DNA from: a virus
Strand: one strand, 5' to 3'
DNA: 64,000 bases
IMG/VR virus record: IMGVR_UViG_3300028840_004913
Location: 39,146-103,145 of that record
A program made the position numbers and the translations under genes. Below, piece after piece: positions 1,820 through 58,328 of the stretch (within the stretch, counting starts at the first letter, position 1; the number at the start of each line of letters is the position of its first letter). The notes under the pieces are model-generated. The model made no database searches, was not told the DNA's origin, and saw only the letters and a list, made by a program, of their open reading frames with translations.

Positions 1820-2068
1820 TTATAAAAGGTTTTTGATGTCTTGCACGACCTGCTCGACCAGCACAGGAATGACGACATTCGCCATATCCTCAAGCTCGCT
1901 TTCTTCTATCAAGATATCGCCTGTGTAAGAAACAAACCCATTTGATACCTCGACCTTCAACATAAACGTGCCTGGTAGCTTGTGGCCGGCCAGGGTAGCC
2001 CGTGCAAATATTCCCTCTCTATTCATTAATGACACCATTATATCACGATTAATGTCAGAATGGTGCAC
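1820..2068 (-). CDS. Hypothetical protein
   Basis: Homologue at 62301-62519; true start probably near 2038. Confidence 0.7.
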   Translation of the reverse strand: MHHSDINRDIMVSLMNREGIFARATLAGHKLPGTFMLKVEVSNGFVSYTGDILIEESELEDMANVVIPVLVEQVVQDIKNLL

Positions 2069-5337: not shown

Positions 5338-6024
5338 TTAATGTGTTTTGCCATCGGCTAAAACCAGTATCCTTTCATCCGATAATTTCCGGACATCTTC
5401 AATATCGATACCATATATTATACCATAGATATCCTCGAAAAGGGGTGGGCACGCCAAAAAAAACATATGGAGTATGGTCTTAGCTATTCGACGGATCTCC
5501 GGATGCGCCTGTTTGCTGGCCCTGAGGGTCAATATATGGCGCCACTCCCTGGCATTCGCCGTGACAACGATATCTGCCTTTGTCATTGTCGGTAGGATCT
5601 CCCTGGCCTGCTGTGGCTTGTATCCAGCCTTAAGCATGTATGAATAAAGATTTTGGGCCTCTGTGAGGAAGCGCTCCATACGCTTAGCAAGCTTCTGATC
5701 CATTCCGGAATACCATTCAGGCTCACAGTATTCTACGTCGCTGTACCGAACATACCTGGTCGACTCCTGAGAGAATGATGCAAGCCTGTGACGAACGAGC
5801 TCGTGAGTTACACCGCGGCCGGTCCTGATCAAAACAGTTGCGCCGACATGCTCTATAACAGAATGGTGACCGCTCCTTATTATCATCCGGACAAAGTCTG
5901 TCGCTGAATTGATATCATACTCAGATTCTGATTTATAGCATGTTCTACCGGCTATCTCAAGATATGTCAAATCGTATATTTCGAAGCTTCTTAATGCCTT
6001 TACAACCGGCTCAACCATTTCCAT
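5338..6024 (-). CDS. thyX: FAD-dependent thymidylate synthase
   Basis: GHHSVIEH and ThyX motif HELVRHRLASFSQESTRY; AHPEIR. Confidence 0.95.
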   Translation of the reverse strand: MEMVEPVVKALRSFEIYDLTYLEIAGRTCYKSESEYDINSATDFVRMIIRSGHHSVIEHVGATVLIRTGRGVTHELVRHRLASFSQESTRYVRYSDVEYCEPEWYSGMDQKLAKRMERFLTEAQNLYSYMLKAGYKPQQAREILPTMTKADIVVTANAREWRHILTLRASKQAHPEIRRIAKTILHMFFLACPPLFEDIYGIIYGIDIEDVRKLSDERILVLADGKTH

Positions 6025-6422
6025 CTTTTCCCCCCTTTATCAGAACTAACCCCAACCTGCAATAATGCGCCCTTATTACGCTCTGGACCCTAAAGTCCTC
6101 GACCGGATTGTTCGCGGGGCAAAACGGATCATGCCTGTATGAACGCAAATCGGCACCGCAAAAAGTACACTCATACCATTGCCGGTGCCGATTATCCATT
6201 CCATATCCCCCCCCCAGGTTATTATTTGCCTTGCTGTTTTTGCTTCGGCAGCGACATCCCTTTAGCCGCCGACCCCGAAAACTCCTCCTTCACCTTAACG
6301 GATTCGCTCGGTGGAACGCTTCCCTTGCCGGCGCTACCCGGGAATTCCTCTTTGGGCTCAATATCTTTGATCGTGGACTGCATGTGATACCTCCTTGCAT
6401 TTCTTCGGATAAATTTTAATCA

Positions 6423-6617
6423 TTAGGTGGTTTCCTTCTCCGGAAAATCCTTAATGACAACTCCCGGGCTCATCGGTGCGCGGTATTCATCCCGCATACG
6501 GTCCTCATCGGACCACCCGGGGATATCCCCCAGGCATTCGCAATCCTTTGTGCGCGGAACCTTTGTTTTCATTTTAGTTTTTACGGCCAAGGTTTCCTCC
6601 TTTTTCGACAAACTCAC
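6423..6617 (-). CDS. Hypothetical protein
   Basis: ORF in the operon orientation. Confidence 0.4.
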   Translation of the reverse strand: MSLSKKEETLAVKTKMKTKVPRTKDCECLGDIPGWSDEDRMRDEYRAPMSPGVVIKDFPEKETT

Positions 6618-6879
6618 ATATTGAATTTAACATAAACCTAAGCGCAAGCTCCCTATCGACGTCCAAACCCTCTGTTTTAACATGACATTCATGACAAAGG
6701 GGTATGCAGTATATGTCTGGCGGCTTCATCGAGACGCCGCAATTCCCAAATCGGCGATCATGGTGGGGATCATTCGGTCCCGGCCGGCCACATTCGGGTC
6801 TGATGCAGGCATACCTCGACACATGCTCGCGGTATTCCCTGCAAATAAGCTTAGCGCTTTTCAGAATGCTGTATACCAT
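6574..6879 (-). CDS. DUF968-like putative HNH/Zn-binding protein
   Basis: C...CG....DPHH...KPPD..CIPLCHECH. Confidence 0.75.
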   Translation of the reverse strand: MVYSILKSAKLICREYREHVSRYACIRPECGRPGPNDPHHDRRFGNCGVSMKPPDIYCIPLCHECHVKTEGLDVDRELALRFMLNSICEFVEKGGNLGRKN

Positions 6880-6896
6880 TATATGCTATGTCAATA

Positions 6897-7535
6897 TTAA
6901 GTTAAGTCTCCAAAAACACGGAGGATTTTATTAACATTCGCAGACACGGTCGAAGCCCATACCCCGAGCTCCGAAGCGATCTCACCTTGTTTTAAAAGTC
7001 TGTCAAAATATAGCTCGCCGATATTCCTCGATAGCTCTGTCGGGAATTGCTCATCTTTTATTTTTTCCCAATAATCTCGCTTTGCCTTCTTTTTAATGAG
7101 CTCACGCTTAGCTGTCTGGTGGCGCATATCGACTGCCTGGTCAGTTATGCCGAGGATCTCAGCTATTTCACAATTTCGTTTTCCCTCGAGATAATACAAC
7201 TCGAGATACTCCCAGGACTTCTTGCTTATGTTCAATCCCTTAAGGATCTCCATTGCTTTGTCCTGTTCATCTGAGTCCCAACCGATTTCAACCCCGTGAT
7301 TTAAGTACATAATATCAACAAAGTCAAATTTGCTTTCGTCTGTATCTCCGGCGGCTCCATTAAGCATTACTTCCTTGTGGGGTGAGGGGTTGCGAAAATC
7401 CTGGCTTATCCATCGTTCAACGGCGGCACATGGCTTTTTAGTCTCAAGACAAACCTTATTCTTGCATTCTGTGCAATCCTTAGGCCTGTCGTTCGCTACC
7501 TTCGCCCTCCGGAAGGGGGGTTTCAGATTCTGCAT
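6897..7535 (-). CDS. Transcription regulator with two sigma-70 region-4-like HTHs and an N-terminal Cys cluster
   Basis: LYYLEGKRNCEIAEILGITDQAV and LYFDRLLKQGEIASELGVWASTVS. Confidence 0.7.
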   Translation of the reverse strand: MQNLKPPFRRAKVANDRPKDCTECKNKVCLETKKPCAAVERWISQDFRNPSPHKEVMLNGAAGDTDESKFDFVDIMYLNHGVEIGWDSDEQDKAMEILKGLNISKKSWEYLELYYLEGKRNCEIAEILGITDQAVDMRHQTAKRELIKKKAKRDYWEKIKDEQFPTELSRNIGELYFDRLLKQGEIASELGVWASTVSANVNKILRVFGDLT

Positions 7536-8256
7536 TTTGCTCCTCCTTTATCAGTCCGTATATGAGAGCGTTATAATTCCGGATATCTCCCAGGGCGTCC
7601 ATTATGGATTCTCCCTTTACCTTTAATTTCCCCTTCTCAACATAGGTGCGTACCCTTTGCATCTTATCCCTCATCCTGATCATGACACCAATCACAGGAT
7701 GAACACCAAGTCCTTCGCTATCTCTGAAATTGGCATATGGATCTCCGGACCCTCCGGTATAATCATGATTTTTTTCCTTCATTATACCGTCGCCGTATTC
7801 GTCAATTTCATGAGCGCAATACATCGGATTTGGGTATCCGTTTATGAATTCGGGGATTGATTCGTCGGCGTTAGACGTCCATCCACCCCAAATATCCGGT
7901 GTAATATCTTCATGTTGCGGTGGCTCAGAAATAATTTCGAACATCGGCCTTACTATCGTATCTTCTTTTTCGGAATTCTTCGATACGCTGGCATAATGAT
8001 AGCAATATTCAGCGAGGTCCCTCGGCGTTAATGTGTTTATCAATAAGGATTTTGTTTTGAATCCGGCACCTTCCAGGTCCACAATAAGTTTAGTTATCTC
8101 ATCTTCTTTAAGAAGCGTTTCTATATGTGAATCCCTAAAATCTCGCTCGTGGATTAGAAATTTTTCATTACCAGACAGAACATAAATCTCTGCCATCACC
8201 ATTTGTATAGCCTTATCCCAAGTCGGATCTTTAAACAAATCTTTTGAGTAATCCAT
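7480..8256 (-). CDS. Protein with a C-terminal DUF1599 / nucleotide-modification-associated domain
   Basis: KNHDY....PYANF...IRMRDKMQR...ESIMDALGDIRNY. Confidence 0.7.
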   Translation of the reverse strand: MDYSKDLFKDPTWDKAIQMVMAEIYVLSGNEKFLIHERDFRDSHIETLLKEDEITKLIVDLEGAGFKTKSLLINTLTPRDLAEYCYHYASVSKNSEKEDTIVRPMFEIISEPPQHEDITPDIWGGWTSNADESIPEFINGYPNPMYCAHEIDEYGDGIMKEKNHDYTGGSGDPYANFRDSEGLGVHPVIGVMIRMRDKMQRVRTYVEKGKLKVKGESIMDALGDIRNYNALIYGLIKEEQNAESETPLPEGEGSERQA

Positions 8257-8812
8257 CTTTATCCCCCCTTAATATATCCATAACGGTTACGGCAATGCCA
8301 TATGCTTGCCAGATATCATCATGAAATGCGTGGCCATCTGTGTTGAACCATGTGTCCTTGGCCTCCCTGATCATTGCTGTGCGCTTGATTTCACCAGAAT
8401 GGCACCTGTGCCATGCATCCGGTGCGAATCTCTTTATGAGAGCGTCCCTGATCTCTTTGTCGCCTCCAGATTTTTTACGGGTCAGGTGGTGGATCTGCCT
8501 CGATCGTGATACCCAAAAGGTATTTGATTTACAACTCCTTGCATGGTGGGCGCCGGAGAACAGTCCGGACCATATTGCAGCATCTGAAACTTCCCTGCCG
8601 GCCCATTTCCTTGAAATGATATATTCCATTGCGATTGTTTCCGGCACGACTTTAGGAAAACCTGGTCCTACCGTGAAGCCATTAAATCTATCAAATAATT
8701 TTTCATTTTCTAAAATTCCAGATTCAGCCGGCTGGAGGTTTTCGTATATTGTGCAAAACGCTGTTTTCTCAGATCCCGGGTCTATTCCCATCACCAACGT
8801 TGGAATTGTCAT
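8231..8812 (-). CDS. RuvC-like Holliday junction resolvase
   Basis: VMGIDPGSEKTAF, IAME, DIWQAYGIA (RNase H fold pattern). Confidence 0.7.
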   Translation of the reverse strand: MTIPTLVMGIDPGSEKTAFCTIYENLQPAESGILENEKLFDRFNGFTVGPGFPKVVPETIAMEYIISRKWAGREVSDAAIWSGLFSGAHHARSCKSNTFWVSRSRQIHHLTRKKSGGDKEIRDALIKRFAPDAWHRCHSGEIKRTAMIREAKDTWFNTDGHAFHDDIWQAYGIAVTVMDILRGDKDGLLKRFV

Positions 8813-9006
8813 ACTGTGCCTCCCAATTATCGCAATACTCATCAAATACTAAAAACATGCAGCGCTTTGCATTCGTGGCGTCACGATAATAAAAACATTC
8901 TTTCTGGCTATCGTGGCTACTATGTGCACAGCACTCGCTTAACCCCCAACCCTTTTTGCAATGGCTTATTACCAGGCTCATATATTCCTTTTCCGCGCAA
9001 GATAAC

Positions 9007-9031
9007 GGAGGGGGGTGACCAGCCCCCCTCC
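9007..9031 (-). terminator. GC-rich hairpin, probable terminator
   Basis: GGAGGGGGG/CCCCCCTCC stem after the 9067 stop; weak U tract. Confidence 0.5.
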
Positions 9032-9066
9032 ATATTAACCGGTTCAGCCACCCCTGGTATTCCCGA

Positions 9067-10071
9067 TTAATGATCGATAGGATTATAGCCCGATCTTAAC
9101 TGAGGCTTTTTTACCTCAAGGATACCTGTGCTATAACATTCATAAACTCCCTCGGGGAGAAGCTCATTCCTGGACTTTGCCTTTCCGTATCCAGTAGATG
9201 TGCTCGGCGTTATAATGCTATCACCGCTCGAGGACGCCACGCTCCCCTGGCCGCCGAAGCCGATACCCCAGGAAACACCCTCAAGATGTTTTCCCTCTGC
9301 TCCCTCGTATACGGGAATCATATGGGTTACCCCGTTCTCCATTGCGGATTCTGCTGCTTTACCAACGACGCCTGTGGCAACAGCATCCAAACCGTCGACG
9401 GTAACATATATGTAACCCATAAACTTGCCAGCCTTACCGTATGAAATACTGGAAGTAGGCTCGCCCTGGAACACGAGTCCTGGGGTCACAACGGCATCTG
9501 GAGCTCCGTCGGCGAGTGCCTTGGCCTGCTTTTTTGTAATAAAACCAAGACGTTCAAGGATATTATACCCCTGGACCTTGGCCTTGAATGCCTTGGCTGC
9601 TCCATCAACCTGGCCATCCGGAACAGTCGGGCCGGCCGCGGACGGGTGGTTCGCCTTGTTCTCTGCCTCTTCGAATATTACCGTCTGGCTGACACCCTCG
9701 TTATTCGCTGATTGATTTTGCCCCTGGATCTGCTTCTGGTCTTGTGCCTGGACCTGCTTTTGATCCTGCTTTTGGTGCTGCTTTTGGTCCATGTCGATCT
9801 CGTTATCAACATCGACAATATTAGCGTTCAGGTTCAGGTTCGTGTTTTTATTGCTGTTGGTATTTGTGTTCAGGTTCGTGTTTAGATTCGTGTTCGTATT
9901 CTTACTGGACGAATCCACCGTAACAATCGTCATACCGGGGTCTGACGATTCATCCGGAACACATTTCCACCCCTTTTTAACCTGGCCAGGAGGACAGTCT
10001 GCGGCCATAACCGACGTCGCGAACATCAAGGAAACAAACAATACAAGCATAATAACAAAATTCTTTTTCAT
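9067..10071 (-). CDS. Secreted protein with Asn/Thr- and Gln-rich repeats
   Basis: Signal peptide MKKNFVIMLVLFVSLMFATSVMA; NTNTNLN and QKQxQ repeats. Confidence 0.75.
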   Translation of the reverse strand: MKKNFVIMLVLFVSLMFATSVMAADCPPGQVKKGWKCVPDESSDPGMTIVTVDSSSKNTNTNLNTNLNTNTNSNKNTNLNLNANIVDVDNEIDMDQKQHQKQDQKQVQAQDQKQIQGQNQSANNEGVSQTVIFEEAENKANHPSAAGPTVPDGQVDGAAKAFKAKVQGYNILERLGFITKKQAKALADGAPDAVVTPGLVFQGEPTSSISYGKAGKFMGYIYVTVDGLDAVATGVVGKAAESAMENGVTHMIPVYEGAEGKHLEGVSWGIGFGGQGSVASSSGDSIITPSTSTGYGKAKSRNELLPEGVYECYSTGILEVKKPQLRSGYNPIDH

Positions 10072-10240
10072 TTTTTTACCCCCCCATATAATTTTTTGAT
10101 CGTCCGCAGGGGAGCTCTCTACTTAGGATTTCGCTACACCCTGCCGGTGCTGTACGCACATCAACCCATAAACGGCTTTTGCGGACTATTTGAGAAACAT
10201 TATAACACCTTTTTTGCGTTAATGGTGCATTAATAGAACA

Positions 10241-10675
10241 TTAAAACGGAATATCATCATCCTCTGGACCAGGGTAGCTACCACCTTCTGGAGGATCTGC
10301 CTGGACAGGGCTCTTTTCATATCCGGAATCACCACGACCGAGATCGATAAAATTCATATCTCTGAGGACAAACTCTGTCGTGTAATTCTTCCGGCCGTCG
10401 TTACCCTCCCACGAACGCGTCTGTACCTGGGCCTCGACATATATCCGGCTTCCCTTTGAAAGGTAGTCCTTGCATATGTCTGCCCATTTTTTGAATGCGA
10501 CAATACGGACCCACTCCGTCTGTTTCTTTTGCTCGCCGCCGCCCTTCGGAGTCCATACCTGGGTTACAGCGATCGAAAAATTTGCTACGGGATCTCCGTC
10601 TCTCGTATATCTGACCTCGGGATCTCCCCCCAACCTACCAATAAACATGCATTTGTTAAGACCTTTTTCTCCCAT
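10241..10675 (-). CDS. ssb: Single-stranded DNA-binding protein
   Basis: LNK..FIGRLG.DPEVRY...TEW.RIV; acidic DDDIPF tail. Confidence 0.97.
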   Translation of the reverse strand: MGEKGLNKCMFIGRLGGDPEVRYTRDGDPVANFSIAVTQVWTPKGGGEQKKQTEWVRIVAFKKWADICKDYLSKGSRIYVEAQVQTRSWEGNDGRKNYTTEFVLRDMNFIDLGRGDSGYEKSPVQADPPEGGSYPGPEDDDIPF

Positions 10676-13965: not shown

Positions 13966-14417
13966 TATAACCCCCCGTTTTCTAAGGTTTTTGTTAAATC
14001 AAAATCATTTACATCGTCGACTTCATTCGGAAGCGGGATCCAAATATTCCACTCCGTACTGGCCCAATGACGAATGGCCGCGAGGTAGTCCTCCATTTGT
14101 GATGTATTAAGGACAGTCGTCGATAAGGTTATCGGCAAACCAGGGACGGGCTCTATAGTTAAAAACATACTGGCCATGGTTGAATGCATATCGTCGACTG
14201 AGTACCCAAAATAATTACACAGGTACTTCCTTAGAACGACTCCACGATAGTATGCGTTCTGTTCATTCGACCTTATCGTTTTTTTCGTCGCCTTCTCAAG
14301 AGAAACGAATACTCTATCACCAGGCTTAAATTGAGCCTTGTGCTTAGAGTATAGGTCTGGACGGTCAAGCCTCGGATGGCCCTGGTCGTCGATCGTTGCT
14401 GAAAATTTAATTCCCAT
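13965..14417 (-). CDS. NinB-like recombination protein
   Basis: RSNEQNAYY...STTVLNTSQMEDYL..I...IPLP. Confidence 0.7.
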   Translation of the reverse strand: MGIKFSATIDDQGHPRLDRPDLYSKHKAQFKPGDRVFVSLEKATKKTIRSNEQNAYYRGVVLRKYLCNYFGYSVDDMHSTMASMFLTIEPVPGLPITLSTTVLNTSQMEDYLAAIRHWASTEWNIWIPLPNEVDDVNDFDLTKTLENGGL

Positions 14418-14715
14418 TTTTAAATGATACCACAACTTTGTCGATAATGGTGCATGGATCGTCAGACAAATACAAAAAGGCCAGGTGCTCAGCGATAGCG
14501 TCCTCCTCATCCTCCCTTATCGGGCGCCCGAGCGAGATTTCTATCCGCTCCAAAAGCATCAAGGCCAGCATCCGGCGAAAATATTTTTCTTTTGCGCTTC
14601 TTAGGTTTCTCTTCGCTATGTCATATGATATCCCGAGGTCCTCAGCTATCTCATTCACAGGTACAAGCTCTTCTGACTCCGGTTTTTTTCCTGGTTTTGA
14701 TCCTGGTACAATCAT
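14407..14715 (-). CDS. HTH DNA-binding protein
   Basis: VNEIAEDLGISYDIAKRNLRSAKEK. Confidence 0.6.
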   Translation of the reverse strand: MIVPGSKPGKKPESEELVPVNEIAEDLGISYDIAKRNLRSAKEKYFRRMLALMLLERIEISLGRPIREDEEDAIAEHLAFLYLSDDPCTIIDKVVVSFKNGN

Positions 14716-14878
14716 TTTAACCCCCCTGCTTTATATGAGTTTTTTATCGTTTCGTGACCTGAGTTGATCATGGCGGCCGTGCATGTGAATAATATTGTCA
14801 AAATGATCCATGCGATTAAGACTGATCTGATCTTCATTTTTCTCATTATAAATTCCCCTTGTTGATATTAATTTTGGT

Positions 14879-14903
14879 GGGGGGAGCTACCGGTGCTCCC
14901 CCC
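14879..14903. terminator. GC hairpin without a U tract
   Basis: GGGGGGAGC/GCTCCCCCC; same stem as 16148-16167. Confidence 0.4.
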
Positions 14904-14912
14904 GGGTTAGGT

Positions 14913-15191
14913 TTAGTCGGTTACGACGAATGATTCACCGTTCATTGTGATCGTCCTGAGGGTATCCAGGTTAATACTCCGGAACCCACCAACCTGCATG
15001 TCAAATACGCGCATGACAGGAACATCCAGACCAACGGATTTGCCGGTGAATTTGACGCCCTTCTTGACACCAAGGCGGCAATTCATTTCGCGAAGGGATC
15101 CGTCCTTCTTGATAAAGGTTACGGTGAATACTCGGCCATTGCTGGCGCGAAGCTGGTTGACGACGTTTACTCTGTGAATTGCTTTTTTCAT
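14913..15191 (-). CDS. SH3-fold / WYL-like (DUF2693-type) protein
   Basis: FTVTFIKKDGSLREM...VFD....FRSI. Confidence 0.7.
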   Translation of the reverse strand: MKKAIHRVNVVNQLRASNGRVFTVTFIKKDGSLREMNCRLGVKKGVKFTGKSVGLDVPVMRVFDMQVGGFRSINLDTLRTITMNGESFVVTD

Positions 15192-15193
15192 GT

Positions 15194-15397
15194 TTAGATC
15201 TCCCTTTTAGTTTTGATCAACCGAATGTGATCGTGTTTGATATCGCTGACAAACATTGCAGCCTTAGCCATACTAAAAAATCCGAATGATGCGAAATGAT
15301 CTTTACTCTCTACTGTTACAATTATCATCCCGCTGTCTAACTTATTTACCTGAGCCCTGAGGCCGTTCTTAAATGTTTCATCGAATGTCATTTTCAT
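15194..15397 (-). CDS. Hypothetical protein
   Basis: GGAGG RBS; directly after a promoter. Confidence 0.65.
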   Translation of the reverse strand: MKMTFDETFKNGLRAQVNKLDSGMIIVTVESKDHFASFGFFSMAKAAMFVSDIKHDHIRLIKTKREI

Positions 15398-15422
15398 GTT
15401 TTTTCCTCCGCTGTTGTATACT

Positions 15423-15449
15423 ATATCGGCAGATTCTAAAATAACTTTA
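15423..15449 (-). promoter_or_regulatory. Sigma-28-type promoter
   Basis: TAAA-GTTATTTTAGAATCT(15)-GCCGATAT with an upstream A tract. Confidence 0.8.
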
Positions 15450-15528
15450 GCTCTTTTTTTACATTAATGAAAATAAAATTGCAACCCCACCCCAGGCAAA
15501 AAGAATTAAAATTAAGAAGCCAATTAAA

Positions 15529-15785
15529 TTATTTGATTTTCTCGATCTCAAGATCCGTCCTCCCGCAAATTGAACATGTCAAATTCAATGTGTTAATGTC
15601 ATTATGTAGGCATTTAAAATTATCTGCTCCCACAATGACACGCCTCGCACGATTGCCTCTTCCCCGTGTAACGAGCTCAAACTTTCCCTTATCCTTACCC
15701 GTCTTGATTAGCCTGGCAGCGTATGCCGGCCGCCATCCGTCACCGTAAAACGTCCCTACTACTGTTCTCAGGTCCTCAGTCGTCA
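15529..15785 (-). CDS. Hypothetical protein
   Basis: Probable start MTTEDL; C-terminal CxH/CxxC. Confidence 0.5.
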
Positions 15786-15928
15786 TTTCCCTTAACTCGT
15801 GGGCTCTGTTCTGGATGTTCTTTTTCAACGTGGTCCTCCAATTCGTCGCATGTGAATCCCTTTTTAAACGGAGTGCAAAAGGGGCATTGGTATTTGCCGG
15901 CGACATGTTTATATCTTTGTTTTGCCAT
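15776..15928 (-). CDS. Small C2H2-like Zn-finger protein
   Basis: YQCPFC...LEDHVEKEH. Confidence 0.55.
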   Translation of the reverse strand: MAKQRYKHVAGKYQCPFCTPFKKGFTCDELEDHVEKEHPEQSPRVKGNDD

Positions 15929-16133
15929 TGCAAAATCTCCATATCTCGAGAGTGTTATATCCGCAATCAAAGCAATGGGTTATCGAATCGTCCTCTTCGA
16001 CCTTTACCCAGGTATTTTCGCTTGAGCAATCTAAGCACGGCTCAGGTATAGACCGCATCCACTCGACCTCACATTCGTCACAGCAAAAAATATCGTGTAA
16101 ATTTATTGGGTTAAAGCAATTAAGACAGAACAT
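15909..16133 (-). CDS. Cys-rich hypothetical protein
   Basis: GGAGG RBS; four CxxC-type motifs. Confidence 0.55.
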   Translation of the reverse strand: MFCLNCFNPINLHDIFCCDECEVEWMRSIPEPCLDCSSENTWVKVEEDDSITHCFDCGYNTLEIWRFCNGKTKI

Positions 16134-16147
16134 TTAAAACCTCCAAT

Positions 16148-16167
16148 GGGGGAGCCGAAGCTCCCCC
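16148..16167 (-). terminator. UUCG-capped hairpin after the DUF932 gene
   Basis: GGGGGAGC-TTCG-GCTCCCCC on the minus strand. Confidence 0.5.
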
Positions 16168-16181
16168 CGTAAGCCTTTGAT

Positions 16182-17195
16182 TTATTTTCCGATCAGGGCC
16201 TTGGCTGCTGCGAACGCCTTGGCTTTCATGGACCGGCCGGCACCAGACACGGCGGCCTTAAACCGGTTATTGATCGATCGAGCAGGTTTCTCGTGATCGA
16301 TATACTCGGTAACCGCATTCAGGGCACCCCACAGGGTACGGTATGAGGTTTTGAGCTCGGCGCCACGGCCATCAAGGAAGCCCTGCATAATTTTAAGGAA
16401 GGCTTTCTTTTTTGCATTCGGGCGCTCTTTCCAGGTTTTCTTGAGCTCTTCGGCGTCGAATACGATCTCAGCGAAAAACTTGAATGCCTCGGTGGTCGGC
16501 ATGGTATGCTTTACCATTTCCTGGCACAGTCTGGAGAATTCAAGCCAACCGAGCTCGATAAGGCCTGCTTCCAATTTGACCTGGGCGGCATCAAACTTTT
16601 CGGTATGCGGGACCTTTATCACAGTCGGACCCTCTTCTCCGTTCTCTGAGGCGGCAATCGCAAACTCCAATGTGTTATTGCAAACAACGCGAATTGACGT
16701 AAACATAAGGGTGGTAGCCAGCGACGTATCATAGCTCGTCATGAGCAAGACATAGGGATAGACCTCATCACCGTCTCCCAGGTCGACACAGTCGCCGACT
16801 TCGGCCAGAGCCCAAACACGCTTTCCGTCGTCCAAGGATCCAGCGGTATGGATACGGAAGCCGTGAAGCTCGATAAGATCGCGATAGAATTCAAGGATCT
16901 CGTGCGGCTGGACAACGTTATATCCTTCGGATACTATTGATAGGGGTGAGAAATTATCTGTCCGGAAAAGGACCTTCCGAGTAGGCATGTCAGCCTCGAT
17001 CTTCGCGTCGCGAAAACCACCGGCTATTTCGTATTTGACGATTGACTCCATAACCCGCCAATCTAAATGAGCTTTCTTTTCCCACTCCTCGATAGTTGCA
17101 TTGGGGTCTACCTGTTGTCCAAGTCCATGCCAAGGTTTGTCGCCAACATAAGCCATGCTGTGTTCGCCGTTGATTTCGTAAACTTTGTGACTCAT
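16182..17195 (-). CDS. DUF932/DUF945 family phage/plasmid protein
   Basis: PWHGLG, YNVVQP, TAGSL..GKRVW, TSIRVVCNNTL, TLWGALNAVTEYIDH. Confidence 0.92.
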   Translation of the reverse strand: MSHKVYEINGEHSMAYVGDKPWHGLGQQVDPNATIEEWEKKAHLDWRVMESIVKYEIAGGFRDAKIEADMPTRKVLFRTDNFSPLSIVSEGYNVVQPHEILEFYRDLIELHGFRIHTAGSLDDGKRVWALAEVGDCVDLGDGDEVYPYVLLMTSYDTSLATTLMFTSIRVVCNNTLEFAIAASENGEEGPTVIKVPHTEKFDAAQVKLEAGLIELGWLEFSRLCQEMVKHTMPTTEAFKFFAEIVFDAEELKKTWKERPNAKKKAFLKIMQGFLDGRGAELKTSYRTLWGALNAVTEYIDHEKPARSINNRFKAAVSGAGRSMKAKAFAAAKALIGK

Positions 17196-17250
17196 AATTT
17201 TTCTCCTTTGTTGATTGTTTTTGTTGGTATTTCTCTGACTCTACTATTTA

Positions 17251-17277
17251 TTATCGGCAATGTCAATATAAACTTTA
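17251..17277 (-). promoter_or_regulatory. Sigma-28 promoter with an embedded sigma-70 -35
   Basis: TAAA-GTTTATATTGACATT(15)-GCCGATAA; TTGACA-N17-TAGAGT; A tracts upstream. Confidence 0.85.
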
Positions 17278-17326
17278 GCTTTTTTTTATTTTTTTTTGGC
17301 GGCCCGGGGAGGCACCGCCAATCTGG

Positions 17327-17545
17327 TCAGATGTCATTCCTCAACTTCGTGATTGTGGCCATTAGATCTTGAGCTTGCAGGGCGGCAACCCTAAGGTCAC
17401 CAGCGGCATCGTCATTCATTACCATAACTCTGAATTGGCCCAGGGTATCTTCGACCGCGAACATTTGCTTTTCAAGAATTCTTGCCAAAGATTTGTTGCA
17501 CTCATTAACACCCTCGCTGAAAGCGTCCATCGATTTACTTGCCAT
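17327..17545 (-). CDS. Hypothetical protein
   Basis: GGGAGG RBS. Confidence 0.6.
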   Translation of the reverse strand: MASKSMDAFSEGVNECNKSLARILEKQMFAVEDTLGQFRVMVMNDDAAGDLRVAALQAQDLMATITKLRNDI

Positions 17546-17563
17546 TTTTACCTCCCTCAGTTT

Positions 17564-17758
17564 TTAATTAATTTCGTTACCGTTATCATCTTCCATCCTG
17601 AGATACCCACCACAACTGACGAGATCTTGATAATAAGGATCAAATGAATTATGCGAGGTCAATTCTTCGAAGCGAGCAATACATTCGTCTTTTGTATCAT
17701 ACTCCTCTATCGCGTTTGCCCCATTATCATTTGTCTGTTCTATTATTTTGTATTTCAT
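17564..17758 (-). CDS. Hypothetical protein
   Basis: GAGG RBS after the promoter. Confidence 0.6.
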   Translation of the reverse strand: MKYKIIEQTNDNGANAIEEYDTKDECIARFEELTSHNSFDPYYQDLVSCGGYLRMEDDNGNEIN

Positions 17759-17801
17759 TTTGGCCTCGTTTTTGTGATGATTCCGTATCGTACTATGAAT
17801 A

Positions 17802-17828
17802 TTATCGGCATGTCAAGAATAAACTTTA
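17802..17828 (-). promoter_or_regulatory. Sigma-28 promoter with an embedded sigma-70 -35
   Basis: TAAA-GTTTATTCTTGACAT(15)-GCCGATAA; TTGACA-N18-TACGAT. Confidence 0.85.
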
Positions 17829-17846
17829 GCTTTTTTTTATTTTTTT

Positions 17847-18326
17847 TTACATTATTTTTTGGCGAAGCTTGTCAGCGATCTCAAGCTTCCGTTTTATTTC
17901 GTTTTTCAAGCGCACCCTCTCTTCATTAAGCCTATCTATATCTGAGCTCAAATCATAATATAGCTTTTCTCCAGGGCTCATATCGTCTGTCTGTATCAAA
18001 AAGGTTCCATAATAACTGCTTTCTGAAACCCTGACAGGGCGACCCTCAAGTAGCTTCGACCCCCTGTAAAAACAAGCTTCTCGAGACATATCGACATTTG
18101 TGTCGCGAACAATAACTTTTACTTTTGCTCTTTTGCGAGGATATTCATTTTGCCTTTCTATGCGTTCGAATGTCAGGGCATACGTTGCCTTAGGCGCCAG
18201 GTTAAGGGCGATTTCATCAAGGAATCCCTCGTGGTATCCAAGGTTTTTTATTGACCTGCCCTCGACATCACCCTCGGTATGTACTTTCCAATAGCCAAAT
18301 GCCGGATGATCTTCTTTTTTATTCAT
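17847..18326 (-). CDS. Hypothetical protein
   Basis: GGGGAGG RBS before MNKKEDH. Confidence 0.6.
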   Translation of the reverse strand: MNKKEDHPAFGYWKVHTEGDVEGRSIKNLGYHEGFLDEIALNLAPKATYALTFERIERQNEYPRKRAKVKVIVRDTNVDMSREACFYRGSKLLEGRPVRVSESSYYGTFLIQTDDMSPGEKLYYDLSSDIDRLNEERVRLKNEIKRKLEIADKLRQKIM

Positions 18327-18672
18327 GATGCCTCCCCTCAATATAATCACCTGAAATTAAAATAAATTCTACCCTTAGAATATCCTTAATTTTAACATCG
18401 CCAAGGGCCTTTATGGCGTCGACAAGCAGCCTCGATATTCTCCTGGCTACCATTTCGGACCCTGGCATCTGATACATTTCCCACCATTCACGGTGGAATT
18501 TCGTCCTCGCTAACCGGTCAATAACGGCGTCGCCCCTTCCCTCGTACGCCATTCTTATTGATCGCTTCCGCAAAAAATTTGGCTCAGTATCGGCGCAACC
18601 AAACCGACTGCTTTTCCTGATGTAATTTTCAAGGGCATCCAATTTTTTCGCAAATTTTAATACTCTGTCCAT
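18319..18672 (-). CDS. Hypothetical protein
   Basis: AAGGA RBS; overlaps the next gene. Confidence 0.6.
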   Translation of the reverse strand: MDRVLKFAKKLDALENYIRKSSRFGCADTEPNFLRKRSIRMAYEGRGDAVIDRLARTKFHREWWEMYQMPGSEMVARRISRLLVDAIKALGDVKIKDILRVEFILISGDYIEGRHHE

Positions 18673-18699
18673 TTCAATAATCCTTTCTGTTGTTATTTT

Positions 18700-18880
18700 T
18701 TATTGACCCCAAATGCCGACATCCTCATTACTCAACTCGTCCGGATCAAGAAACTCTGGATATTCAGCAAGGTTGTCCTGGTTGAATAGCCGTTCCTTTT
18801 CCCGAGCCTCTTCAATATATTTCGTATACTCCTTTACCGCATGTTTTTGCCATCCCTGGCGCTGTCCTTTTGCTGGCATG
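18700..18880 (-). CDS. Hypothetical protein
   Basis: GGGGG RBS before MPAKGQ. Confidence 0.5.
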
Positions 18881-19203
18881 TCATTCCCCCTTTTCAATTT
18901 CAAAGTATTCACCGCATTCGTCACATTGCTCGGCGCCCAACGGTACCTCAGTCTCATTATCGCATCCGCAATTCGGGCACTCCCATTCCCACCTGTAAGC
19001 GTAAGCTGTTGCTTTTTCCATTTATTTAGTCCTTTCGTATTTCCTGCCGATTATAAATGCACAAACGATAGCTGAGAATATTAGAACCGGCGCAGGGTTT
19101 TCGATAAAGTCCTGTACCCAATGAATAATAACAAATCCCAAAAATAGAAAACCAAGAATACCACCGATTATTTCTAAAATTTTATCCCACATTATTGATC
19201 CCC

Positions 19204-19392
19204 CTAATCAAAGTAAAGTCTGGTTATAAGTTTTTCAGATCTGTCCAGGTCGCGGATATCGCCGGTCCTCAAATACTGTTTATATGCTCGGCGGCACGCC
19301 CTCTTGTGGCGGGTTACGGCGTCCTGGACTTCTTCTTTGCTCCATATGGTAAATTTCGGTTTATAATCTTTTATGACATTGTATCCGGCCAT
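19204..19392 (-). CDS. Hypothetical protein
   Basis: Probable start MAGYNV just after the upstream stop. Confidence 0.5.
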   Translation of the reverse strand: MAGYNVIKDYKPKFTIWSKEEVQDAVTRHKRACRRAYKQYLRTGDIRDLDRSEKLITRLYFD

Positions 19393-19393
19393 T

Positions 19394-19768
19394 TTATTTT
19401 CCCTCAAAAAATTCTTTGGTGTATTCATCGATCTTTTCAAAAGAAAGACCCTGCTTCCAGAAAAAATGCTCGACGTCCTGCTTGAATTCCATATCGACGT
19501 CCTCGGCATCCATCAGCCACCGGATAGCCGTCTTTCTATCAGGGGCACCAATACTGATTGTGTATTCGATCATTTCCTCGAATACCCGAAGGCTTTCGGC
19601 CTGATTGACGGCCTCTAAAGCCATATTTGCCTTGGTGAGGTCACAGAGATATTCGATCTCAATATCGAGATCTTCCTGCGTCCACCATTCTTTATAATGG
19701 CCACGAGGACGGAAACCGTGGGCGTCTTTGAAGAGATCTGAAAGGCATGTTTCTGAAATGTGTATCAT
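19394..19768 (-). CDS. Conserved phage hypothetical protein
   Basis: SDLFKDAHGFRPRG...GAPDRKTAIRWL motif; GGAGG RBS. Confidence 0.7.
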   Translation of the reverse strand: MIHISETCLSDLFKDAHGFRPRGHYKEWWTQEDLDIEIEYLCDLTKANMALEAVNQAESLRVFEEMIEYTISIGAPDRKTAIRWLMDAEDVDMEFKQDVEHFFWKQGLSFEKIDEYTKEFFEGK

Positions 19769-19812
19769 TTTTACCTCCTGAAAAGTTGTTGTTTTCCCCT
19801 TACTATACCATA

Positions 19813-19839
19813 GTATCGGCACATGTCAAGAATACTTTA
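19813..19839 (-). promoter_or_regulatory. Sigma-28 promoter with an embedded sigma-70 promoter
   Basis: TAAA-GTATTCTTGACATGT(15)-GCCGATAC; TTGACA-N16-TATAGT with TGn extension. Confidence 0.85.
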
Positions 19840-20023
19840 GGACTTTTTTTAATTTTTTTTCAAGGGCAAATAATTCAGAGGCTGCGTTGTGGCCATGGAG
19901 CCCTATCTCTATGTGCTCCTCTGTCAGATCTCTGAATTTACTTGTTACCTCTATAATAGATTCCCTGGCCTGCTCAAGTATTTCTATGTCCCTTTTTAAA
20001 AGGGCCTTTATTTCAGGATTCAT
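19826..20023 (-). CDS. Coiled-coil hypothetical protein
   Basis: GGGGG RBS before MNPEIK. Confidence 0.5.
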   Translation of the reverse strand: MNPEIKALLKRDIEILEQARESIIEVTSKFRDLTEEHIEIGLHGHNAASELFALEKKLKKVLKYS

Positions 20024-20210
20024 AATCCCCCCGGTATTTTTCTTTTCGAGTATAACGTTTTTTGTCCCTGTGCACCTGAGTCTCTCTAACCGTAGGCTTA
20101 CGGACCTTTGTGTAATGGGGAGCCCTCCAGCCGCACCGCCGGCACTCCCCACTCTTTGTCATTGCAGAACCACAAGCCTCGCACCTTATCCTAAACATAG
20201 ACCGAGACAT
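20013..20210 (-). CDS. Small Zn-ribbon protein
   Basis: CEAC..CRRC; G-rich RBS. Confidence 0.55.
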   Translation of the reverse strand: MSRSMFRIRCEACGSAMTKSGECRRCGWRAPHYTKVRKPTVRETQVHRDKKRYTRKEKYRGDYES

Positions 20211-20296
20211 GACAACCCCCTAATCTTATTCGTTTTGACCTGTTCGCCCGGGCCATAGCCTGTTTTATTGCCGCAAACTGCGACAGCCTCTTAAGC

Positions 20297-20503
20297 TCAA
20301 CTTTCGCATTCTTCTTGCTCGATTGAACACTCTGTATTTGTAATTGGTACTTCATTTAGAATAACCTCCATTTCCTTAAATGCCGCGACCCTGGCCGCGA
20401 AAATTTCGTCGACAAGACCCTTACCTTCCAATATAGATTGCTCTTTTGACCTTTCTGCCAGATATAGCCGAAGTCGTTCCACCGTCATAAACCCATCTCC
20501 CAT
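20297..20503 (-). CDS. Hypothetical protein
   Basis: ORF in the operon orientation. Confidence 0.45.
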   Translation of the reverse strand: MGDGFMTVERLRLYLAERSKEQSILEGKGLVDEIFAARVAAFKEMEVILNEVPITNTECSIEQEECES

Positions 20504-20978
20504 TTAATTTGATATAACCCATTTCGACCAATATAGGATCCTTCGGGCTCGAGAATCCGGCCTGTTCTGACCTGCGAATAACCCGCAAGTTTAGCTCTTC
20601 TCTCTTTTGGAATTTCCTCCAGAAATTAATAAGCCGCATAAACTCATCGGCGAATTCTTGCCCATGGGGTTTGAGCCGTTTATCCACCTGGGTATTGGCA
20701 TAGATGTGAGCCAACTCATGCAGCACAACCCATACGCTGTGTCTATATATTTTTACTCTGCGCTGTCTCGGCCAGGCAGTACCCAGGCGCCTCGAACATT
20801 TCCTGTTTGACAATTCAACTGTAGCACCCTTTAGTTGATATGCATTCTGGTACTGCCGCATGAACTCAAGCATCGGCTTTTTTTCTTTTTCTATAATGGT
20901 GTTGTTCAGCCTGAGAGCGTATGCGTAAATGACCTTAACCTTCGAATTGCCTGTCCCGATGTTGTTCATGTATTTCAT
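20421..20978 (-). CDS. SprT-like zincin metallopeptidase
   Basis: VVLHELAH...PHGQEF. Confidence 0.75.
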   Translation of the reverse strand: MKYMNNIGTGNSKVKVIYAYALRLNNTIIEKEKKPMLEFMRQYQNAYQLKGATVELSNRKCSRRLGTAWPRQRRVKIYRHSVWVVLHELAHIYANTQVDKRLKPHGQEFADEFMRLINFWRKFQKREELNLRVIRRSEQAGFSSPKDPILVEMGYIKLNGRWVYDGGTTSAISGRKVKRAIYIGR

Positions 20979-21014
20979 TTTTCCCTCCGTTGGTTTTTTG
21001 TTGCGTTACAAACT

Positions 21015-21041
21015 GTATCGGTCACCTGAAAATAAACTTTA
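21015..21041 (-). promoter_or_regulatory. Sigma-28-type promoter at the start of the leftward early region
   Basis: TAAA-GTTTATTTTCAGGTG(15)-ACCGATAC; A tracts upstream. Confidence 0.75.
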
Positions 21042-21123
21042 GCATTTTTTTTATTTTTTTGTCAACATTTTTTTTAAATATTTTTTTGCACCATTCCTGG
21101 CATAGTTGTGGTAGTATAGTTCC

Positions 21124-21696
21124 ATGCCTTACAAAAACGACACAGGTTACCCGTCGTCCACCAAGATCCTTGAATATTGGATTGATAAAAAATGGTTCAA
21201 GCCAATCCATTCAGAGCGCGGATCTGCGGTGCACGGCCAATGTAGCGCAAACCTCTTAGGATTACCGGTCATGCCACAGGACCGCTGGCCTACATATTAT
21301 GAATCATTTCTTAGGCTTAGGCCACATATTTTGGAGGTTTTTGTCGTTGAGGTCCGGTACGTTGATGAAGATCTCGGCTATTGTGGCCAGCCGGATCTGG
21401 TCGCCAAGATGGATGAAACCTATAATAACTGGATCATTCTTTGGGACTGGAAAACTTCGCAGGCCAGGCATAAGTATTGGGGCCCACAAACGGCTTCATA
21501 TAAACACCTGGTCGAATCCAATACTGGACTACCGATTGATCGGTGCGCGACGGCTCGGCTGAGGGGTGAAAACAATAACCCACACCTGCCACCGCTGGTC
21601 GATATTTTTGAACCGGAGCAAACAGAATTTCATTGGCAGGTATTCTGTAACGCCCTGGTAAACCACAACTTTTTTGGAGGACAATATGGATATTGA
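21124..21696 (+). CDS. PD-(D/E)xK exonuclease
   Basis: PS.T.IL, RGS.VH, VE, GYCGQPDLV, DWKTS, QTASY; possibly leaderless (TGnTAGTAT ends 7 nt before the ATG). Confidence 0.85.
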   Translation: MPYKNDTGYPSSTKILEYWIDKKWFKPIHSERGSAVHGQCSANLLGLPVMPQDRWPTYYESFLRLRPHILEVFVVEVRYVDEDLGYCGQPDLVAKMDETYNNWIILWDWKTSQARHKYWGPQTASYKHLVESNTGLPIDRCATARLRGENNNPHLPPLVDIFEPEQTEFHWQVFCNALVNHNFFGGQYGY

Positions 21697-22411
21697 TCTG
21701 AACGTAACCAAAAAACGAGAGAGGCACGATCTGGTCGTCTCTAAAATGGCAGATGCTGTCGTAGATGATAGGGATTTCTCGATCAAGAATCTGGCCCTTT
21801 TTGGGAAAAACGTCATGCTTAAAGTCGAGGCCATGCAGGAAGAGGCTAATTCATTTCGGGCAACCTCGGCGAATAAAGACGACGCCACCGAGAGGGGAGC
21901 CCAAGCAAAGAAGCTGGCAACTATATTCGACAAAAAGCGGAAGGCCTATAAGGAGCCATACCTTCGCCATGGTAAAGAGATCGACTCCGTCTTAATGCCA
22001 ATCGTTAAGGCGCTGAGAGAAGTCGAGAAAACCATGGGCATCAAGCTGTCAAAGGTACTGCATAGAGAGGCCGAGAAAAAACGCCTGGAAGAGGCCGCTC
22101 GCAGGGCTGCTGAGGAAGAGGCAGCCAAAGCCGCAGCCAAGCTCACAAAACAGAAGATCGCCCCGCCTGTGGCCTCTCAGCCAGCCGCAGCACCGGTCAA
22201 AAGGGTTCAGGCTGAGACTGGATCTGCCGGCCTGAAATATAAACCGGAGTTTAAATTAACCGGATCCCTGGCTGATGTTGATCCAAAGTACCTGCAGTTG
22301 AATGAAGAGGCCCTGGCCGCCGCATATAAGGCCGGAAGCCGAGGCAATGATATCAAGGGTATCGAGATTGTTAAGGTGCCCGTAACCAGTTTCGCAAATA
22401 AAAGGAGTTAA
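21674..22411 (+). CDS. Coiled-coil protein of the recombination module
   Basis: Helical, KRKAYKEPYL...ID pattern; lies between the exonuclease and RecT-like genes. Confidence 0.6.
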   Translation: MEDNMDIDLNVTKKRERHDLVVSKMADAVVDDRDFSIKNLALFGKNVMLKVEAMQEEANSFRATSANKDDATERGAQAKKLATIFDKKRKAYKEPYLRHGKEIDSVLMPIVKALREVEKTMGIKLSKVLHREAEKKRLEEAARRAAEEEAAKAAAKLTKQKIAPPVASQPAAAPVKRVQAETGSAGLKYKPEFKLTGSLADVDPKYLQLNEEALAAAYKAGSRGNDIKGIEIVKVPVTSFANKRS

Positions 22412-28145: not shown

Positions 28146-31100
28146 TTATTTCTTATTTTCGTACATTTGCATAACCCTACGGACGATCTCATTTTTCTGT
28201 CCGGTCCATTTATCGATCTTGGCTTTTTTCTCGTCACCGTCCATAGTTTCGCTTAGCCAAGCCTTCCTGATTTTACGGTTGAGCTCCGTCAACTTCCTGC
28301 GATCCTTATGGAAACGCTTACGCATGGACAGCTTTTTACGATGCTTTTCTTTGATCGCCCTGGCTGCCTCATAATCACCGATCGCGTTCAGGTGCTTCAC
28401 GTCTGCGTAAAGCTGGTCGGCTTGCCTCGTAATGTCGTATAACTTACTAATATACTTGGTGTAACGAGGATTGTCGGCCTGCCTCAAAAATCGACCTATC
28501 ATCGGGTAATCATCCACCCGTTTTGTCGGACGCTCCGGATAGTCCATCAACCATCTGGCTGCTGGATCTGTAAAGAATAGGGCCAGATTAACATAAGTCG
28601 CAAAGTATCCTTTGACAAGGGACTCTGTTCTTTTTGGCGGCGTACCTATTAATTCACCGAGCATCTTGAAAGTCTCAGATGTCCACGGTTCAGCCCTAAG
28701 CCCTGGAGATAACTTGGAAATCCGCTGACCTTCAATCGGCCTGCCGGTGAACATACTTTTATTAAATACCTGTTCGACGATAGGGATAGCGGCCTGAGGC
28801 ACCGGATTGAATGCGAATGTGTCCATCACCGCATGTCCGATAGTCCTTAGCACATATGTCCATGGTTCATTCCCCTTAGCGGCATCGGCTGTGGCTGTCC
28901 ACAGAGTAGATCCAATAACACCCGTTTCAAAAGGCTTCGGGATCCGGATATGCCAATCTCCAAGCCAGAAATTATAGTATTGCCATTTCTCCCAATCCTC
29001 GAGCTCTTTATATCGATCATCGTCGGCATACGCAGCCCAGGCGGCCAGGGACATAGCGGCCAGGATAAGAGTCTTGCCGGCGAATACTTTGGGGTTTTCC
29101 CTGGCAGCGCGGCCCATTTTATAGAGGCCCTGGATCCTGGCATTCAGGAACGGCACCACCGAGGTGAAAAAGTTTAGGGTATCGGACGTTCCAGACATTT
29201 GAAAGTCCATGATATCTCGAGCAGCGAAAGAAGCCTCAAGCTGCGTTTTACCTTTCTTCCTAAGGTTGCTATACAGTTGTACCCTGGCGGCGTTCTCAGA
29301 GGCCTCACCGATCGCCTCCCATAGCCTCCATGGTGAGCTCACGACGTTCCATACCTTACCGCGCATCTGTTTCTGAGTAACCCCTTTCAGGTGCTTCGAC
29401 ACAGCCTTAGGATCATCGGCCCTTACATATGATCCTGCAAAGGCGTGGCCGGAGGCCAGATACTCGACATACTCTTTGTCGTTGAATAGGATCTTGCCAA
29501 CACCACGGAGCGAATCAAGGAATGGAATAAAGTCATTCGAGATCATTCCGGTATGCAGGGTATCCCGCAGGAAGTTTGCCATCTTAAAAGCTGGCCCAAA
29601 GGTGGCTCCCATGGTCAACCACCGCTTCGGATATCTCAGAGCATTCACGAGCATATTGTCAGCGGTCACATTCCGCATCAAGCTCATGGCTGCGAAAAGC
29701 TCCGGATCATTCACTCGGTAGAACCTTGTTTTACCCTTATCCTTAAACCCGAGGACCGGCTCTCCCGTTTTCTGCTCGATAAAGGTGGCCTTGCCAACCC
29801 CCTTAAACCTAACGGTATCCTTCCATTGGACCTCTTCGACAAGGGGCTTCTCAACTTCATTACCGTCTTCGTCAAGGCCGTAGTACCCGCTCGGCAGGGC
29901 GAGTCTCTCCGCAGTCCGGAATGCATCACCACGAGATTTATTCTTAATACTCTCGACGACAAGGTGGTTCCAGTTTTTCATAATATTTTCAAAGGGATCG
30001 CCAATCTTTTTCTCGGACCCTTTGAGCCGTTTTATCTGCGCGGAAAGAAATTTGGATCCCTGCTTCGGGCTCTTTACAAACTCAATCGCAGTCTCTTCAT
30101 CCTCGAATACACGATAAAACGGAATGTAAAATTCCTGCTGAAAAAGTTTTCTTGAGGCCGGATCTATAAGGCCGGCTTCTTGCGCGATATCGAGGATTGC
30201 ATCATTAAACGCTTGGAATTCTTTGTTAAGTTCATCCCAGGATTTATTCCCTTTTGGATCGCCAACCCAGGCCATGATCTTATCACGATCTGATTTACCG
30301 AGAAGTTTCTCTCGGCCCTCTTTCTCCAGGGCCTCAGCCCTCTTGACAACCAGCCAGTAAAAAAATTTCTCACCATCTTTTTTAAGGCCCTTGACCCATG
30401 GGATAAAACCCTCACCCTTTGTGTCGACAGTCAGAACGTCGCCGGCCGCATTCCATTTCAACTTTCCATGCAGAAGCTGTCCGAGCATCGAGGTCGGTGC
30501 ACCAGGAATACCCCTGTGCATCATGTACTCAACGCCTTCTCCGAAATGCTTCTTAACCGGAGCAAACTTGTCGACCACCAGCGTGGCTTTATTTTTCCAG
30601 AATGAATTCCATGCCTTAGCGGTTCTCTCCCTGAGTGGCTGGTCTGTACGGCCGATCTTGGCGTCTATAACCTCTTTGGCGTCCTGAGTAATCGGCTCCA
30701 TGGTATCAAAGCCAGGAATGATCGGAACGTCGTCGACGGTATTCATATCAAACCAGGTTTCGTCGACAAATTCTTTAAAGCTATCGTATCCGGAATCCTT
30801 CATTATCGCGTCAAGGGTAGACAGGTCCGTATTGTCGTCATAGATAAAATCGTTTAATTCATCCATGGCAGTATCATACGCACCGTCCCTTTGCTCAGGA
30901 TTTAAGATCTCCCTGTTTATCGTTTTGATAATAAGCCGCTCGGCCTTATCAGCTATTTCGCGCCGGTCCTCCCGTGTCGCATCCCAGGTCATGGGAGCGA
31001 TATCTTCGAGCCTGGAGTCTACAAACTCGGAAAAGGTTTTATACCCGTCGACAGCATCATCTATGATGGAGTCAAGAAGGTCCGACTCTGTGGTACCATC

Positions 31101-58096: not shown

Positions 58097-58328
58097 ATGT
58101 TAGCGGATTAAGCTCTTCGATCTCACAGATTAAGCCATGAGGCTGAGATTGTCTATGCCTATATCCGCTGGTTTCAAGTTATTCAGGCGGCTCATGTACG
58201 CCTGACTGCAGTTCACCCTCTAAATGTTAAAACCATAATACCACAGTTTTGTATGGAATGGTGCAAAGTTTTGTATAAAAACAACACATTTCTTGTACCA
58301 AATCGATCAAAAAACAACATATAAATTG

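Follow-up and report, generated by a model that had tools for sequence, protein, structure and literature searches.

Which RNA polymerase holoenzyme starts the block of small genes at the head of an uncultured phage? The question is raised by IMG/VR record IMGVR_UViG_3300028840_004913 (103,145 bp), of which we analysed positions 39146–103145, a stretch of 64,000 nt hereafter called the window. The usual view is that phage early genes start from strong sigma-70 promoters or from promoters served by enzymes that the phage brings with it. Five sites ahead of the early-type genes in the window resemble promoters of another kind, those of the sigma-28 family, which comprises FliA in Escherichia coli, Salmonella and Pseudomonas, SigD in Bacillus and WhiG in Streptomyces, and which reads class-3 flagellar promoters. 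The sites are very probably promoters, and we put the probability that they are read by a host sigma-28-family holoenzyme at roughly 0.6. That the genes are early, that a sigma-28 holoenzyme is the reader and that there is any link to motility are the parts of this account that we infer.

A preliminary description of the stretch, made from its letters and open reading frames (ORFs), had reported five minus-strand sites with a constant distance of 15 nt between TAAA and the -10 box, as in the sigma-28 consensus. The pattern TAAA-N16-CCGATA, which is TAAA-N15-(G/A)CCGATA written differently, was found as five exact minus-strand matches at 15424–15449, 17252–17277, 17803–17828, 19814–19839 and 21016–21041, all of which begin with CTAAAGT. 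The plus strand held one match, unrelated and within a gene. In dinucleotide-preserving shuffles the pattern matched 0.06 times on average and at most once, so that both the number and the location of the reported sites were borne out. Scanning of the 64 kb revealed no other site with one mismatch or fewer, and no further convincing site when up to three mismatches were allowed.

The published FliA motif is TAAAGTTT-N11-GCCGATAA (PMC7286023). Scored against it, the sites reached 14, 14, 16, 16 and 14 of 16 from 21016 down to 15424, the consensus being that of E. coli and Pseudomonas, which may not be that of the host. The -35 box (TAAA, extended to TAAAGTTT) agreed at 7–8 of 8 positions in the five sites, and likewise in a sixth site outside the window; the -10 box GCCGATAA agreed at 6–8 of 8 per site, with CCGATA always kept. 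The spacing from TAAA to GCCGATAA was the same 15 nt at every site (N11 between the 8-mers), as the preliminary description had it. When the sites were aligned side by side, the TAAAGT and CCGATA boxes were invariant, and the 11-nt spacer and the flanks were variable. These observations refute, to our mind almost completely, the explanation that the likeness is due to chance or is the functionless residue of a recently duplicated cassette. Shared A-tracts are all that speaks for such an origin; against it stand five sites where 0.06 are expected, boxes that do not vary between spacers and flanks that do, and the retention of the motif in a second phage joined in the same record and in the relative G011, as well as its recurrence in unrelated phages (see below).

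The positions of the sites are those of promoters. Every site lies on the coding strand, with the end of CCGATA 27–57 nt upstream of an ATG with a Shine-Dalgarno (SD) sequence, and the whole set falls within ~5.6 kb at the start of the leftward transcription unit. The 38 nt upstream of the sites contain 53–92% A+T, with A runs of 7–9, which confirms the arrangement first described, of A-tracts upstream and a ribosome-binding site and gene downstream. These tracts have the form of UP elements (an A/T-rich tract at about -40 to -60), which is their predicted role. In each sequence feature by which the sigma-28 class is recognized, the putative promoters agree with that class.

We propose that host RNA polymerase carrying a host sigma-28-family factor (FliA, SigD or WhiG) would read TAAAGTTT and GCCGATAA, 11 nt apart, and that the upstream A-tracts would act as UP elements. 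Two of the promoters are perfect E. coli/Pseudomonas FliA consensus sequences, so that synthetic fragments would allow the claim to be tested without a cultured phage.

The sigma-28-type boxes are not the only promoter-like sequences at these positions. A sigma-70 consensus scan of 14000–22000 placed four of its five best matches on sigma-28-type sites, each with a perfect TTGACA, and these four sites reached 10–11 of 12 against TTGACA, 16–18 nt, TAnnnT. At the 19814, 17803 and 17252 sites, TTGACA lies within the sigma-28-type spacer and shifts by 1–2 nt relative to the fixed boxes. At the 21016 site the sigma-70 boxes lie upstream, and the TAAAGT box serves also as a -10 element. The 15424 site was the sole one without an overlapping sigma-70 -35 box in that scan. 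We roughly estimate at about 1e-7 the probability that three of five 15-nt spacers would contain a perfect TTGACA by chance. The preliminary description had counted three sites fused to sigma-70 promoters; the overlap stands, but the number becomes four by the consensus scan. We suggest that at these four sites the interleaved sigma-70 promoter would let the housekeeping holoenzyme start the same genes about 10–12 nt away.

The overlap also gives rise to a different explanation, in which the early promoters are ordinary sigma-70 promoters and TAAAGT and CCGATA are sites for a regulator, such as a shut-off repressor or another operator-binding protein. The perfect TTGACA with a -10-like hexamer 16–18 nt further on at four of the five sites speaks for this explanation, and the first promoter does lie in a divergent control region, beside a promoter of a second class (class II, described below). 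However, the 15424 site has no sigma-70 -35 box, and the boxes are asymmetric rather than dyad, keeping their mutual position while TTGACA slides by 1–2 nt. In addition, they match a known sigma consensus at up to 16 of 16 positions, which would be unexpected for an unrelated operator, and 76 of 93 sites of the same kind in other phages have no TTGACA in the spacer. We therefore regard operators as improbable, at about one chance in ten.

The 93 sites in other phages came from a scan of IMG/VR with the A-tract plus motif, AAAANNCTAAAGT-N14-CCGATA, for which the same pattern reversed served as the control. The forward pattern matched 72 stretches, many with 2–8 sites, versus 26 for the reversed control, all of them single. 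An SD sequence and start codon followed within 64 nt at 57 of the 93 distinct sites, versus none of the 26 controls. The consensus of the 93 sites comprises the A-tract, C and TAAAGTTTT-N10-gCCGATAag, and 17 of them have the composite design seen in the window, with TTGACA inside the spacer. Many of the sites form clusters, of three to eight in several phages and often next to the end of a genome or contig: there are eight in G001, six in G006 (complete, 43 kb), five in G002 (complete, with direct terminal repeats), all on one strand and within 9.5 kb of the left end (834–9545), and five in G005 within 4.5 kb of the contig end (206–4495). The cluster of G003 lies at 6172–10641, and TAAAGTTTTGTTGACAAGTGCCGATAacagtTATAGAAT, which recurs in G003-like contigs, combines a perfect sigma-70 promoter with interleaved sigma-28 boxes.

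The motif-bearing IMG/VR phages share only 0–3 proteins with each other and with the phage studied here. Models of Sigma70_r2 and of FliA/WhiG had no match in the complete genomes G002 and G006, and in a search for sigma region 4, G002 had no match and G006 a single one of 13 bits that fell short of the cut-off. The same motif in unrelated phages, with no phage sigma factor or polymerase detected, therefore favours a host factor. A conserved one would best explain the recurrence, and sigma-28, whose specificity is exactly this, is the most likely candidate. More tentatively, at a little under even odds, many unrelated uncultured phages may wire their first-expressed genes to the host flagellar sigma factor, often interleaved with sigma-70.

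The search for a reader encoded by the phage itself pointed the same way. In its genome, Sigma70_r2 (region 2) had no match at E<=1 and the FliA_WhiG-type sigma model none at E<=0.1. There was no PF00562 match that would indicate a multisubunit RNA polymerase, while the positive controls were matched; a T7-type polymerase was sought with PF00940, again with no match in the genome, in a search whose positive control was unable to give a signal. A very large protein of 3117 amino acids gave only InPase, GP88 and LPD38 profile matches, and Pfam revealed no sigma or anti-sigma domain in the small early proteins.

Two proteins of the phage nevertheless deserve attention as possible readers. If the boxes were recognized by a phage factor acting with the host core enzyme, whether a very divergent sigma or a protein that appropriates one, the candidates would be the 212-amino-acid protein P0001, which has two region-4-like helix–turn–helix (HTH) domains and counts FliA region 4 among its weak profile and fold matches, and a 102-amino-acid early protein that also has a region-4-like HTH. 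We consider this unlikely, somewhat less so than the operator explanation. No region 2 was found anywhere in the genome, nor any FliA-type match, and the P0001 model contains region-4-like domains only, behind a small Cys-rich N-terminus. P0001 would also be made too late for the first genes, because its gene follows the last sigma-28-type site (15424) at a distance of ~8 kb, with class-II promoters in between. Unrelated phages with neither P0001 homologues nor an identifiable sigma factor carry the same motif, and conversely P0001 homologues occur in G013, G031 and G032, relatives that lack it.

P0001 was considered separately as a hidden complete sigma factor, and rejected. It has about 40 homologues among 1.8 billion representatives, and a structure model built from 26 of them (mean predicted local distance difference test score, pLDDT, 81) has isolated sigma region-4 domains as its only structural relatives, with no region-2-like domain; profile and fold both give only tandem region-4-like domains.

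Several considerations weigh against reading by a host sigma-28 holoenzyme. The sigma-70 boxes at four of the sites might suffice alone, and a very divergent phage sigma factor, comparable to T4 gp55 or SPO1 gp28, would go undetected by the Pfam and NCBIfam models that we used. The preliminary description had proposed looking for the motif across relatives, and here the outcome was unfavourable: 21 of 22 long IMG/VR contigs related by their portal protein (39–55% identity) lack it. Conservation of the sigma-28-type wiring across the lineage is thus lacking, which fits adaptation to a host and leaves little phylogenetic footprinting. The exception among the 22 is G011, which has two sites, one of them orthologous to the first promoter; in G011 (55% portal identity) and in the second phage of the record, the boxes of the divergent region are kept and the spacers differ.

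Relatives that might point to the host are distant. No cultured relative was found by blastn. Relatives of the DUF932 protein in IMG/VR and metagenomes are at most 41% identical and come without the motif. The large terminase subunit is ~44% identical to terminases of enterobacterial and Pseudomonas siphoviruses, and in named genomes the portal family is represented, at ~40% identity, by prophages from Halomonadaceae and other Gammaproteobacteria. The portal relative P0003 is 72% identical. A partial portal match of 54% lies in a Desulfobacteraceae metagenome-assembled genome (MAG), on a distantly related contig of 59% GC that shares only capsid, portal and a few other genes; this MAG encodes FliA and contains two exact motif matches, about the level of the reversed control. 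The name of a Ketobacter MAG on a 53% portal match is weak host evidence.

The features discussed here and below are collected in Table 1.

Table 1. Promoter-like elements and selected genes in the window
Feature	Position	Strand	Description
Sigma-28-type promoter before SprT-like gene	21016..21042	-	CTAAAGTTT-N11-ACCGATAC, 14/16; belongs to second joined phage
Sigma-28-type promoter	19814..19840	-	CTAAAGTAT-N11-GCCGATAC, 14/16; 46 nt upstream of ATG at 19768
Sigma-28-type promoter	17803..17829	-	TAAAGTTT-N11-GCCGATAA, 16/16; 45 nt upstream of ATG at 17758
Sigma-28-type promoter	17252..17278	-	TAAAGTTT-N11-GCCGATAA, 16/16; 57 nt upstream of DUF932 gene
Sigma-28-type promoter	15424..15450	-	TAAAGTTA-N11-GCCGATAT, 14/16; 27 nt upstream of ATG at 15397
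A-rich UP-element-like tract upstream of first promoter	21043..21085	-	Similar A runs at other four sites
Sigma-70-type promoter	21036..21065	-	TTGACA-18-TGcTAAAGT; -10 is TAAAGT box of sigma-28-type site
Overlapping sigma-70-type promoter	19802..19829	-	TTGACA-16-TGgTATAGT, 11/12, extended -10
Overlapping sigma-70-type promoter	17787..17816	-	TTGACA-18-TACGAT, 10/12
Overlapping sigma-70-type promoter	17238..17266	-	TTGACA-17-TAGAGT, 10/12
Class-II promoter upstream of terminase and structural genes	58235..58265	-	
Class-II promoter	21087..21117	+	TGCACCATT-N13-TGgTAGTAT; back to back with first early promoter; heads nuclease/RecT-like operon
Class-II promoter at early-block end	14424..14454	-	Heads replication genes DnaB, SSB
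Class-II promoter	10199..10229	-	
Class-II promoter	2037..2067	-	
Early-type gene block, about 22 small ORFs headed by five promoters	14913..20978	-	SprT-like, DUF932, several zinc-ribbon proteins, WYL_2
Last early gene, 102 amino acids	14407..14715	-	Sigma-region-4-like HTH; weak, HTH_10 E=0.017
P0001, 212 amino acids	6897..7535	-	Cys-rich N-terminus and two sigma-region-4-like HTH domains, without region 2

The record from which the window was taken is a chimera. Its positions 1–43260 are colinear with 59886–103145, where 80% of the length aligns at ~75% nucleotide identity, and the sequence at 59886 repeats its first ~100 bases exactly; the record therefore consists of two related phages of ~60 kb, joined inside the SprT-like gene, and not of one genome. 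Window positions 1–4115 accordingly correspond to window positions ~59887–64000, and the 'completeness 100' label of the record is misleading. Since the join falls at the shared ~100-nt stretch in the SprT-like gene, the ORF at 20421–20978 is probably chimeric between both phages. The 21016 site is that of the second phage; the orthologous site of the first phage lies outside the window, at record positions 522–547, and differs in the spacer but not in the boxes.

Each of the two phages has one long leftward gene series in which the small early-type genes come first, opposed by a short rightward nuclease/RecT-like operon. The names that the preliminary description had given to genes of the early block (DUF932, SprT-like and WYL-like) were supported by Pfam matches to DUF932, SprT-like and WYL_2. 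The leftward series further holds replication genes (DnaB, SSB and ThyX), a tRNA array with RtcB, the terminase, portal and capsid genes, and a polyvalent protein of ~3000 amino acids (3117 in the window copy and 2988 in the other). No tyrosine integrase was found in the genome, and the phage is probably virulent, with a genome of ~60 kb.

Two modules of the series merit a brief description of their own. The 3117-amino-acid polyvalent protein (window 28146–37499, minus strand) carries InPase, GP88 and LPD38 domains, and its InPase stretch (residues 719–852) has a match in PDB 9b41 (E=8e-21), in the C-terminal part of a chain described as a phage 'gp19 portal'. Eleven tRNA genes are arrayed at window 58413–59664 on the minus strand, adjoining rtcB (60605–61864), and a further tRNA-Tyr gene lies at window 245–329 on the minus strand, the equivalent place of the other phage.

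The window also holds a second class of promoter, which is specific to the phage lineage. Class II has the form TGCACCATT-N13-TGnTAnnAT, that is, an extended -10 element of sigma-70 type with a foreign box in the place of the -35 element. Promoters of this class stand before the recombination, replication and tRNA/packaging modules, with matches at equivalent places in the other phage of the record too, and G011, the closest complete relative (portal 55–57% identical), has a related TGCACC-N18-TGnTATAAT. The sigma-28-type sites fill the first ~5.6 kb and the block ends at the first class-II promoter; the sigma-28-type set would therefore be the early class, to be followed, if the genes are indeed early, by a phage-activated class. 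The class-II design resembles that of activator-dependent middle promoters such as the MotA class of T4. Class-II promoters would probably need a phage-made protein resembling sigma region 4, and our guess at a candidate activator is the 102-amino-acid early HTH protein or P0001.

If a host sigma-28 holoenzyme reads the early promoters, several consequences for infection would follow. An early regulon that depends on an alternative host sigma factor would tie the start of infection to motility and flagellar assembly. Early expression would be strongest in motile, FlgM-depleted cells, for example those entered through the flagellum, and it could persist if the phage silences sigma-70. Mutations in fliA or flgM are predicted to alter susceptibility to the phage after adsorption. 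The preliminary description had suggested that the phage ties its expression to host motility or titrates sigma-28, and either idea is a reasonable conjecture. More broadly, this would be a general and undescribed way for phages to choose, or to sense the state of, the cell that they infect, and the interleaved sites would provide a compact natural design for dual-sigma promoters.

No published phage with an early block headed by sigma-28-type promoters was found in our literature search, in agreement with the earlier remark that no well-described phage regulon of this kind was known; a review of flagellotropic phages contains FliA only in its reference list. In Salmonella phage Arash, the RNA polymerase subunits beta and beta' (Gp216 being beta') and a sigma factor, Gp10, were detected in particles, and the promoters of the phage are not described in that paper (PMC10585845). 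The phage studied here would resemble Arash in that its transcription would not depend on host sigma-70. Unlike Arash, it has no polymerase or sigma gene that we could find.

Phage T4 uses early sigma-70 promoters and then MotA/AsiA-dependent middle promoters, and SPO1 uses host sigma-A and then phage sigma factors. The layout of the present phage is similar to both, with an early class for a host holoenzyme followed by a phage-specific class with the foreign upstream box TGCACCATT. In contrast to T4 and SPO1, it is an alternative host sigma factor that the early class of the present phage matches, instead of or besides the housekeeping one, and for the second class we can offer no more than a guess at the activator.

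Among published cases the nearest is that of flxA and ykfB, single FliA-dependent genes in the cryptic E. coli prophages Qin and CP4-6, respectively; Table 2 of the study concerned gives -28-fold for flxA in its deletion column and -3.7-fold for ykfB (PMC1935009). The likeness lies in phage-borne genes under host sigma-28. The difference is that flxA and ykfB are isolated accessory genes of lysogens, whereas here a whole early block with five promoters is concerned, in a phage in which no integrase was found. A further prophage example emerged during our analysis: TAAAGTCT-N11-GCCGATAT lies 56 nt before a hypothetical gene of 201 amino acids in a lambdoid prophage of E. coli NCTC11023 (NZ_LS483297.1; locus L282, about 4288–4313 on the plus strand). 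The gene stands between dinI and nin-region genes, and of 5426 complete E. coli genomes, 3 contain the lambdoid prophage that carries it. The gene resembles a moron that would be under FliA control, comparable to flxA.

In design, the sites resemble the promoters of the flagellar genes themselves. The fliC promoter of E. coli K-12, read from the genome, is gaaaaaaattcTAAAGGTT-N11-GACGATAA with an upstream A run. Like fliC and other class-3 flagellar promoters, the phage sites consist of two boxes with an 11-nt gap, a C before TAAAG and an upstream A run. Unlike them, the phage promoters precede a block of about 22 small early-type genes, in place of genes for flagella or chemotaxis, and at four of the five a sigma-70 promoter is interleaved; their reading by sigma-28 is predicted. 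The promoter type is a known one, and its use in this phage is new.

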